This document shows positions 23,861 to 24,158 of a DNA stretch of 64,000 bases, in pieces. The notes below the pieces were generated by a model. It saw only the letters and a list, made by a program, of their open reading frames with translations, did no database searches and was not told where the DNA came from. Source of the stretch: a virus; IMG/VR virus record IMGVR_UViG_3300027301_000003, positions 1-64,000 of that record, one strand, 5' to 3'. Positions within the stretch are counted from its first letter, which is position 1; the number at the start of each line of letters is the position of its first letter. The translations under genes and the position numbers were made by a program.

Positions 23861-24158
23861 TAGTCCCGATCCTCTGCAGAGTTTCAAATCCCTAGAAACA
23901 ATGCACGATGCGAGGTAGGTGAAAGCCCTATCACTAAAATGCAAGTACTGATGGCGTGGTACTGCAGGATTTCCAAGGCCAAAGGGTTGTCGCCCGGATG
24001 TAACAAGACACTATAATACCTATTTAGGGATAGGTGGTTATAGTTCAGTATATTTCAGGTTGGGTAGACGAACGTGGTTTACTATTTGGGGTATCGAATC
24101 GTTCTGTGGTGGAATGAGGGGGCATACCTAAGATACGGAATATACTGAACTATAACTA
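23861..24158 (+). ncRNA. unrecognised highly structured RNA (one or two elements)
   Basis: No ORF; several hairpins; 7-bp loop complementarity; 18-bp perfect long-range stem 24037-24054/24139-24156. Confidence 0.6.

Follow-up and report, generated by a model that had tools for sequence, protein, structure and literature searches.

The analysed stretch of DNA (the window, 64,000 nt) derives from a 74-kb IMG/VR virus record. This freshwater phage is a relative of Limnohabitans phage DC31, to which the RNA element described here is 82% identical. On the plus strand, which carries all parts of the RNA locus given below, a unit is found that consists of a promoter-like site, a tRNA-Arg(UCU) gene, about 300 nt without a credible ORF, the ribosome binding site AAGGAG and the ATG (24168) of a nucleotidyltransferase-like gene. 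The putative sigma-70-like promoter (TTGACT-18 nt-TATAAT, 23741 to 23770) agrees with the consensus at 11 of 12 positions, and the same motif is kept in the aligned relatives L004, L010, L011, L014, L022 and L023. The tRNA-Arg gene (anticodon UCU, 23782 to 23856) is called by ARAGORN, scores 60.5 bits with the Rfam tRNA model and is located directly upstream of the RNA element, termed D1 (23857 to 24044), which is present once in the 74-kb record. No terminator-like sites were found between the promoter-like site at 23741 and the next gene, in line with the preliminary description, which had placed the promoter of the RNA at this position. D1 is predicted to be transcribed on the plus strand from this site, together with tRNA-Arg and the downstream genes. 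That the stretch lacks a reading frame, as had also been claimed, was borne out: it contains no meaningful ORF, and the indels in the alignment are not multiples of three.

A candidate internal promoter at CACTATAAT (24009-24017) was discarded. Its -10-like word becomes TATAAA, TATGAA or TATTGA in relatives, and in L022 a 37-nt insertion splits it from the only -35-like word. The tRNA calls by ARAGORN and the Rfam tRNA model are restricted to 23782-23856 and 25879-25953. A putative CCA-ended tRNA mimic (25955-26047) directly follows tRNA-Met and is itself followed by a perfect consensus promoter (12/12, with TG) at 26068-26096.

Relatives of the locus were gathered in three ways, namely by exact words from the region, by the downstream protein and by one metagenome scan; the D1 copies were then recovered with an nhmmer profile, followed by a covariance model (R1). 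In total, D1 was recovered in 45 distinct versions; the contigs that carry it are viral or metagenomic and relatives of Limnohabitans phage DC31. The position of the element is constant: all 45 distinct copies directly follow a tRNA or tRNA-like gene, with an A/U-rich linker of 0-5 nt in between. When 185,579 species genomes of bacteria and archaea were scanned for the D1 pattern, no match was obtained, and searches with filters switched off did not find D1 in Curvibacter phage P26059A or the T4-like phage JS10. The D1 family is restricted to one phage clade.

Comparison of these sequences indicates that D1 is a real structured RNA gene of about 190 bases with a conserved fold. Covariation was assessed in a model-based alignment of 40 distinct rows (A4). 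Standard pairs are formed by 94.8% of the cells, as opposed to 81.7% after shuffling, and 29 of 50 pairs show compensatory changes on both sides, a level reached by none of 500 shuffles. The same holds for the covariation score (0.352 versus 0.136 shuffled, 0/500 shuffles); covariation strongly supports the fold. As a control, the helix partners were slid by 1-3 columns, which reduced pairing to only 33-45%. Cells with G-U pairs by far outnumber those with A-C (133 versus 18), which identifies the folded molecule as plus-strand RNA rather than DNA or the opposite strand. The single-sequence folding energy of D1 is unremarkable (z = -1.34); the case for the element therefore rests on comparison, and is strong. 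A blind scan for further covarying column pairs returned far too many false pairs, the sequences being closely related.

The fold of D1 starts with the A/U-rich linker and a conserved 5' single strand (AAUUUAGUCC, 23857 to 23866, as given by a junction table of the 45 distinct sequences). Within this strand TAGTCCCG is nearly invariant, and the 5' processing point is likely situated 0-5 nt past the CCA end of the tRNA. P1, P2 and loop L2 follow (23867 to 23912), as supported by covariation in A4. P1 (CGATC/GAT-G-CG) pairs 23867-71 with 23907-09 and 23911-12, leaves G23910 bulged and encloses P2, which is composed of a lower stem (23875-78 with 23902-05) and an upper stem (23881-85 with 23895-99) capped by L2 (23886-94, AAAUCCCUA). 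The inner pairs of P1 differ among subtypes (ATC/GAT, CTT/AAG, GTT/AAC and CC/GG), and the lower stem of P2 occurs in the variants TGCC/GGCA and TGCT/AGCA; for the subtype of the window, for which the model alignment is poor, P1 and the lower part of P2 were placed in register by eye. The upper stem is the GTTTC/GAAAC hairpin around the loop AAATCCCTA that had been noticed in the single sequence, and C-G is replaced by U-A at two of its pairs.

Three further hairpins and a terminal one complete the element, and all but P5 had been seen before. P3 (23914 to 23932; 23914-19 with 23927-32) is the GGTAGG/CCTATC stem with a U-GNAA-R-Y cap including G23921-A23924; four of its pairs change on both sides. 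P4 (23940 to 23966; 23940-42 and 23944-48 with 23959-66, A23943 bulged, 10-nt loop) contains the AGTAC/GTACT stem and exhibits both-sided changes in 9 of 9 pairs, with 98.3% of cells paired. P5 (23984 to 23995) comprises GGG, the loop UUGUCG and CCC and is likewise supported by covariation, one pair being A-U in 26 rows and G-C in 13. The terminal hairpin (24010 to 24044) has an outer stem X/X' (24010-16 with 24038-44), an inner stem P6 (24019-23 with 24030-34) and the loop L6 (24024-29, UUAGGG). Both stems of this later hairpin are confirmed: the inner one (ACCTAT/ATAGGT) shows both-sided changes in 5 of 5 pairs, and in the outer one (CTATAA/TTATAG) G-C replaces C-G in 10 rows.

The fold as drawn in the preliminary description was about half right. 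All of the letters it quotes lie where it had placed them, and its four hairpins stand, but its two enclosing helices do not. The closing helix (ATCCT..GCAG with CTGCAGGAT) and the TGCA/TGCA helix around GGTAGG jointly pair in 48.8% of cells, the same as in shuffled alignments (49.8%). Their letters instead sit in the covarying P1, P2 lower stem and P4 lower stem. The self-complementary word TGCA occurs four times, and according to covariation copy 1 pairs with copy 2, extending P2, and copy 3 with copy 4, extending P4. Three other pairings were considered and rejected. AGUCC of the 5' strand with GGAUU (23967-71) and AUCC of loop L2 with GGAU both show uncompensated changes in L012, L051, L052, L062 and L076 (A3 and A4, by eye), and a longer P5 (CC...GG) is inconsistent among subtypes.

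Two loops of D1 are candidates for tertiary contacts. CCCUA in L2 (23890 to 23894) could pair with UAGGG in L6 (24025 to 24029). Of the 7-nt complementarity between TAGGGAT and ATCCCTA that had been reported, these five nucleotides remain, as A24030 and T24031 belong to the P6 stem. L2 and L6 are invariant in every row that covers them and in the 13 metagenome copies, while the stems that carry them vary freely. As the loops never vary, covariation is silent on the kissing contact and on its intra- or intermolecular form. By our own estimate, two loops of 9 and 6 nt would have a 5-nt Watson-Crick match by chance in about 1% of cases. Complementarity together with invariance makes a CCCUA/UAGGG kissing contact plausible, be it intra- or intermolecular. 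In the P3 loop, the pattern U-G-N-A-A-R/U-Y is kept in 41 of 45 sequences (GAAA 14, GCAA 15, GUAA 11, GGAA 1); with all four bases occurring at N, this loop is, as a sequence pattern, a GNRA tetraloop.

To identify D1, the window was compared with Rfam 15 (4227 models), and only tRNA models match, both at the gathering score and at E≤10. The same result was obtained for ten diverse related loci at E≤1. The model set includes GOLLD, ROOL, raiA, OLE, manA, RNase P, tmRNA, 6S and Y RNA-like RNAs as well as group I and II introns and all small self-cleaving ribozymes. D1 matches no catalogued family, in a comparison that excludes the catalogue of 8,495 candidate viral RNAs (PMC10690425). A weak match to a plant microRNA precursor (15.5 bits versus a gathering score of 93) is due to the long hairpin of D2 described below. 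An RNase P-like reading, prompted by the words AGUCC and ACAAGAC, is dismissed for want of an Rfam RNase P match at E≤10, and a tRNA or tRNA-like identity because the helices of D1 form no cloverleaf and neither ARAGORN nor the Rfam tRNA model calls a tRNA in D1. With Rfam 15 devoid of a match and the fold strongly supported by covariation, the earlier proposal of a new ncRNA class is upheld.

Directly behind D1 a stem-closed module, D2, is located, which in the window is of the type D2a (24035 to 24158). Its closing helix of 22 bp (24035-56 with 24137-58) is perfect, and the 3' strand abuts the ribosome binding site of the nucleotidyltransferase-like gene (AAGGAG and ATG, 24158 to 24170; gene 24168-24986). 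The interior has a hairpin formed by 24063-69 and 24077-83, and a variable arm formed by 24084-94 and 24124-34. The arm GGTTATAGT (X') of the terminal hairpin of D1 doubles as 5' strand of the 22-bp helix, which had been overlooked in the first inspection. X, X' and X2, the partner of X' in D2, change together (CTATAA/TTATAG/CTATAA in the window versus AGTATA/TATACT/AGTATG in L049), so that X' can pair with either neighbour, X of D1 or X2.

Across the relatives, the closing helix is uninterrupted over 13-22 bp, mostly 16-22, in 29 of 34 loci; four of the remaining loci have a mismatch in the helix and one was mis-detected. The D2 position is occupied by D2a, by a second type (D2b), by plain hairpins of 39-45 nt, by a module with a T-arm-like hairpin or by D2a and D2b in tandem. 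In most loci D2 is followed by the ribosome site. A tRNA follows in L027, L029, L053 and L055, a tRNA-like element in L019 and L021, and another module in L004 and L026.

D2b is a conserved stem-closed module of about 96 nt with the closing helix GGTTATAGTAAGAGATA paired with TATCTCTTACTATAAC. It occurs at L031:775-875 and in L030, L041, L058 and L060, and follows D2a in tandem in L004 and L026; an Rfam match was not found for the D2b of L031. The 5' strand of the D2a helix and the bases next to it (TTATAGTTCAGTATATTTCAGGTTGG, 24036-24061 in the window) are identical even in the most distant loci, L027, L053 and L055. Substitutions in this helix are confined to the 3' strand and mostly give rise to G-U pairs. 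This pattern points to a sequence constraint on the D2a 5' strand beyond pairing, which the stable-RNA model set out below leaves unexplained.

The protein encoded downstream (272 aa) contains the domains DUF7277 and DUF7275 and an invariant GS...DxD motif. Its predicted structure is confident (pLDDT 84.5), and the closest solved structures are MenT1 (Z 7.2), MenT4 (7.0), 6y8q (an entry titled AbiEi antitoxin, 7.0) and TglT (5.6), with antibiotic nucleotidyltransferases also among the structure matches. The protein thus appears to resemble a family that includes tRNA 3'-end-modifying enzymes, a moderate match with Z below 8. A sequence search of the PDB with the enzyme profile gave no meaningful match, and Foldseek against the PDB gave only matches with E≥0.06. 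The enzyme has relatives in 736 phage records, with T4-like, Felix-O1-like and jumbo phages among them; almost all of these relatives are annotated as hypothetical, and in the T4-like phage JS10 the gene is located in the e to e.6 region. The gene is not always accompanied by D1, which is lacking in L059, where tRNA-Arg directly precedes the gene, in L063-L067 and in Curvibacter phage P26059A. D1 can therefore not count as an accessory of the enzyme in general. Conversely, in all D1 loci with downstream sequence the enzyme gene is found at most about 0.8 kb downstream, which leaves room for a clade-specific functional link or a role in cis.

In the proposed mechanism, D1 would be a stable RNA that is cut from the transcript of the tRNA operon and acts in trans. 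The 5' end would be generated by the tRNA 3'-end processing of the cell, in the A/U-rich linker just past the CCA, and the 3' end by cleavage within the long perfect D2 helix, whose length is that expected of an RNase III substrate. With this helix cut, X' would fold back on X and close the 3' hairpin of D1; such refolding would explain the co-variation of X, X' and X2. The CCCUA/UAGGG loop-loop contact and the GNRA-type loop of P3 may serve to lock the fold. The ends, the stability and the processing enzymes of D1 are in this scheme inferred. Acting in trans, D1 would most probably be the partner of a protein involved in RNA or tRNA metabolism, or a decoy for it, the weakest step of the chain. 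A control element of the neighbouring gene it would presumably not be: the gene is found without D1, and tRNAs or other modules can separate D2 from the gene. On balance, this chain as a whole is slightly favoured as the correct account, while the confidence that D1 is a real new structured RNA is much higher.

The mutually exclusive helices of X', both partners of which co-vary with X', can also be read as the switch of a cis leader of the riboswitch or T-box type, in which the choice between X'-X and X'-X2 gates the ribosome site and thereby the translation of the nucleotidyltransferase-like gene. The distance from the end of the D2 helix to AAGGAG is 0-4 nt in most loci, the same gene family lies downstream in all loci with downstream sequence, and the complex fold with its putative loop-loop contact resembles known sensor domains such as those of purine riboswitches. 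However, the tRNAs, tRNA-like elements and second modules listed above, and other ORFs in L050 and L057, separate D1 from the gene in at least 11 loci, and the close relative L059 dispenses with D1 altogether. Simple expression platforms differ from the D2 interiors, which are long and conserved modules, and a search for sequence complementary to the ribosome binding site found none. A cis leader is for these reasons considered rather unlikely.

The steady neighbourhood of D1 and the gene is open to another explanation, in which D1 would be the partner RNA of the MenT-like nucleotidyltransferase, either a substrate or primer that is extended or an inhibitor in the manner of an RNA antitoxin. 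The gene order is kept wherever D1 occurs, the toxins MenT1 and MenT4, which modify tRNA ends, come closest to the predicted fold of the protein (Z 7.0-7.2), and GS...DxD is invariant. Yet nearly all of the 736 phage records with the enzyme family are without D1, and a Z below 8 is only a moderate match; we regard such a partnership as distinctly unlikely. Little credence is given, for its two versions jointly, to the idea that D1 founds a new functional class of RNAs peculiar to phage tRNA islands. In the first version, D1 might assemble with itself via the invariant CCCUA/UAGGG loops, by analogy to ROOL and GOLLD; in the second, it would be a catalytic or ligand-binding RNA that works with the MenT-like enzyme on tRNA ends and, for example, counters host defences that attack tRNAs.

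The ribozyme proposed in the preliminary description, a self-cleaving RNA or one with some other catalytic activity, one version of which would cut at its own 5' edge and so free the 3' end of the tRNA, is suggested by general features only: the compact multi-helix fold, the invariant unpaired nucleotides, the GNRA-type loop, the possible long-range loop contact and the position exactly at the processing junction. No Rfam ribozyme family was matched at E≤10 (window) or E≤1 (ten loci). Moreover, small self-cleavers leave a cyclic phosphate at the cut, and such a group on the CCA end would harm the tRNA. A catalytic D1 finds no support and is regarded as quite improbable. That the repeats act as DNA (a protein binding site, a recombination site or an origin) is very hard to credit: X, X' and X2 are indeed three copies of one 8-nt word, direct and inverted, with modules exchanged between them, but the ratio of G-U to A-C cells shows pairing to be kept only on the plus strand, and compensatory changes occur in short hairpins across the whole element.

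By kind, D1 would belong to the orphan stable RNAs of phage tRNA clusters. The T4 tRNA gene cluster encodes two small stable RNAs, rnaC (species 1) and rnaD (species 2), whose function has gone unexplained for decades and which are matured from the same transcripts as the phage tRNAs. Their likeness to D1 is confined to the genomic setting; host clade and phage family differ, and D1 is longer and has an exchangeable stem-closed module behind it. For the putative cut in D2, the closest parallel is provided by the RNase III stalks of rRNA operon stems, T7 early mRNA sites and the lambda N leader. RNase III acts on about two turns of uninterrupted double helix. Similarly, D2 is closed by a perfect helix of mostly 16-22 bp that flanks a module and lies directly before a ribosome binding site. 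Unlike in RNase III signals, the interior and the 5' strand of D2a are conserved beyond processing needs; cleavage of D2 is predicted, and the helix length fits. In the tRNA-miRNA units of MHV68 and in MALAT1 with its mascRNA, a noncoding RNA is fused to a tRNA or tRNA-like unit and tRNA processing sets one of its ends. The D1 RNA likewise adjoins a tRNA, whose end-processing would set one end; in contrast to these eukaryotic or animal-virus cases, the tRNA is 5' of the RNA and the virus is bacterial.

GOLLD (RF01998) and ROOL (RF03087) are reported to assemble through loop-loop contacts in their solved structures (bioRxiv 10.1101/2024.12.08.627333). Like D1 they are orphans with an elaborate fold, and they often adjoin tRNA genes in phage DNA. 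Unlike these RNAs of roughly 600-800 nt, D1 has about 190 nt, and its oligomerisation is a possibility only.

Unexplained stable RNAs have long been known in phage tRNA clusters, and D1 adds a new and well-delimited family whose fold is small and strongly supported and whose candidates for tertiary contacts are clear. Through its cultured representative, Limnohabitans phage DC31 (host Limnohabitans sp. DCL3), in which both D1 and D2a are present at 82% identity to the window, the function of orphan RNAs in phage tRNA islands is opened to bench work. The regular presence of a MenT-like nucleotidyltransferase next to D1 gives a hint that the RNA could have to do with the arms race over tRNAs between phages and bacteria. 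At the same time, D1 is one more orphan RNA motif among many, with a putative function and a distribution over a single phage clade.

Other unusual elements were observed in the same islands. In several relatives the gene directly upstream of D1 is a long tRNA-like gene of 98-104 nt with an insertion after the anticodon arm (L049:2142-2239, L019:496-599 and, on the minus strand, L072:418-516; similar in L006, L027, L055 and L062). These genes score 34-46 bits with the Rfam tRNA model, and the copy in L049 is not called by ARAGORN. L021 (5640-5757) and, at the corresponding position, L016 have a module of about 120 nt between a tRNA-like gene and D1. Perfect inverted repeats close this module, with the arms TAAGCTTACGAAT and ATTCGTAAGCTTA in L016 and AAAGTTACGAGT and ACTCGTAACTTT in L021. 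In Curvibacter phage P26059A (KY981271), where D1 is absent, about 830 nt without annotated genes are found between tRNA-Arg and the enzyme homologue (L084:2176-3000). This stretch contains a 99-nt element that is called tRNA-Pyl by ARAGORN, and serial modules with closing helices of about 12-20 bp by eye, e.g. ACTATCAAGT... with ...ACTTGATGGT. Since such modules are present in a phage without D1, stem-closed RNA modules may be a more widespread feature of these tRNA islands.
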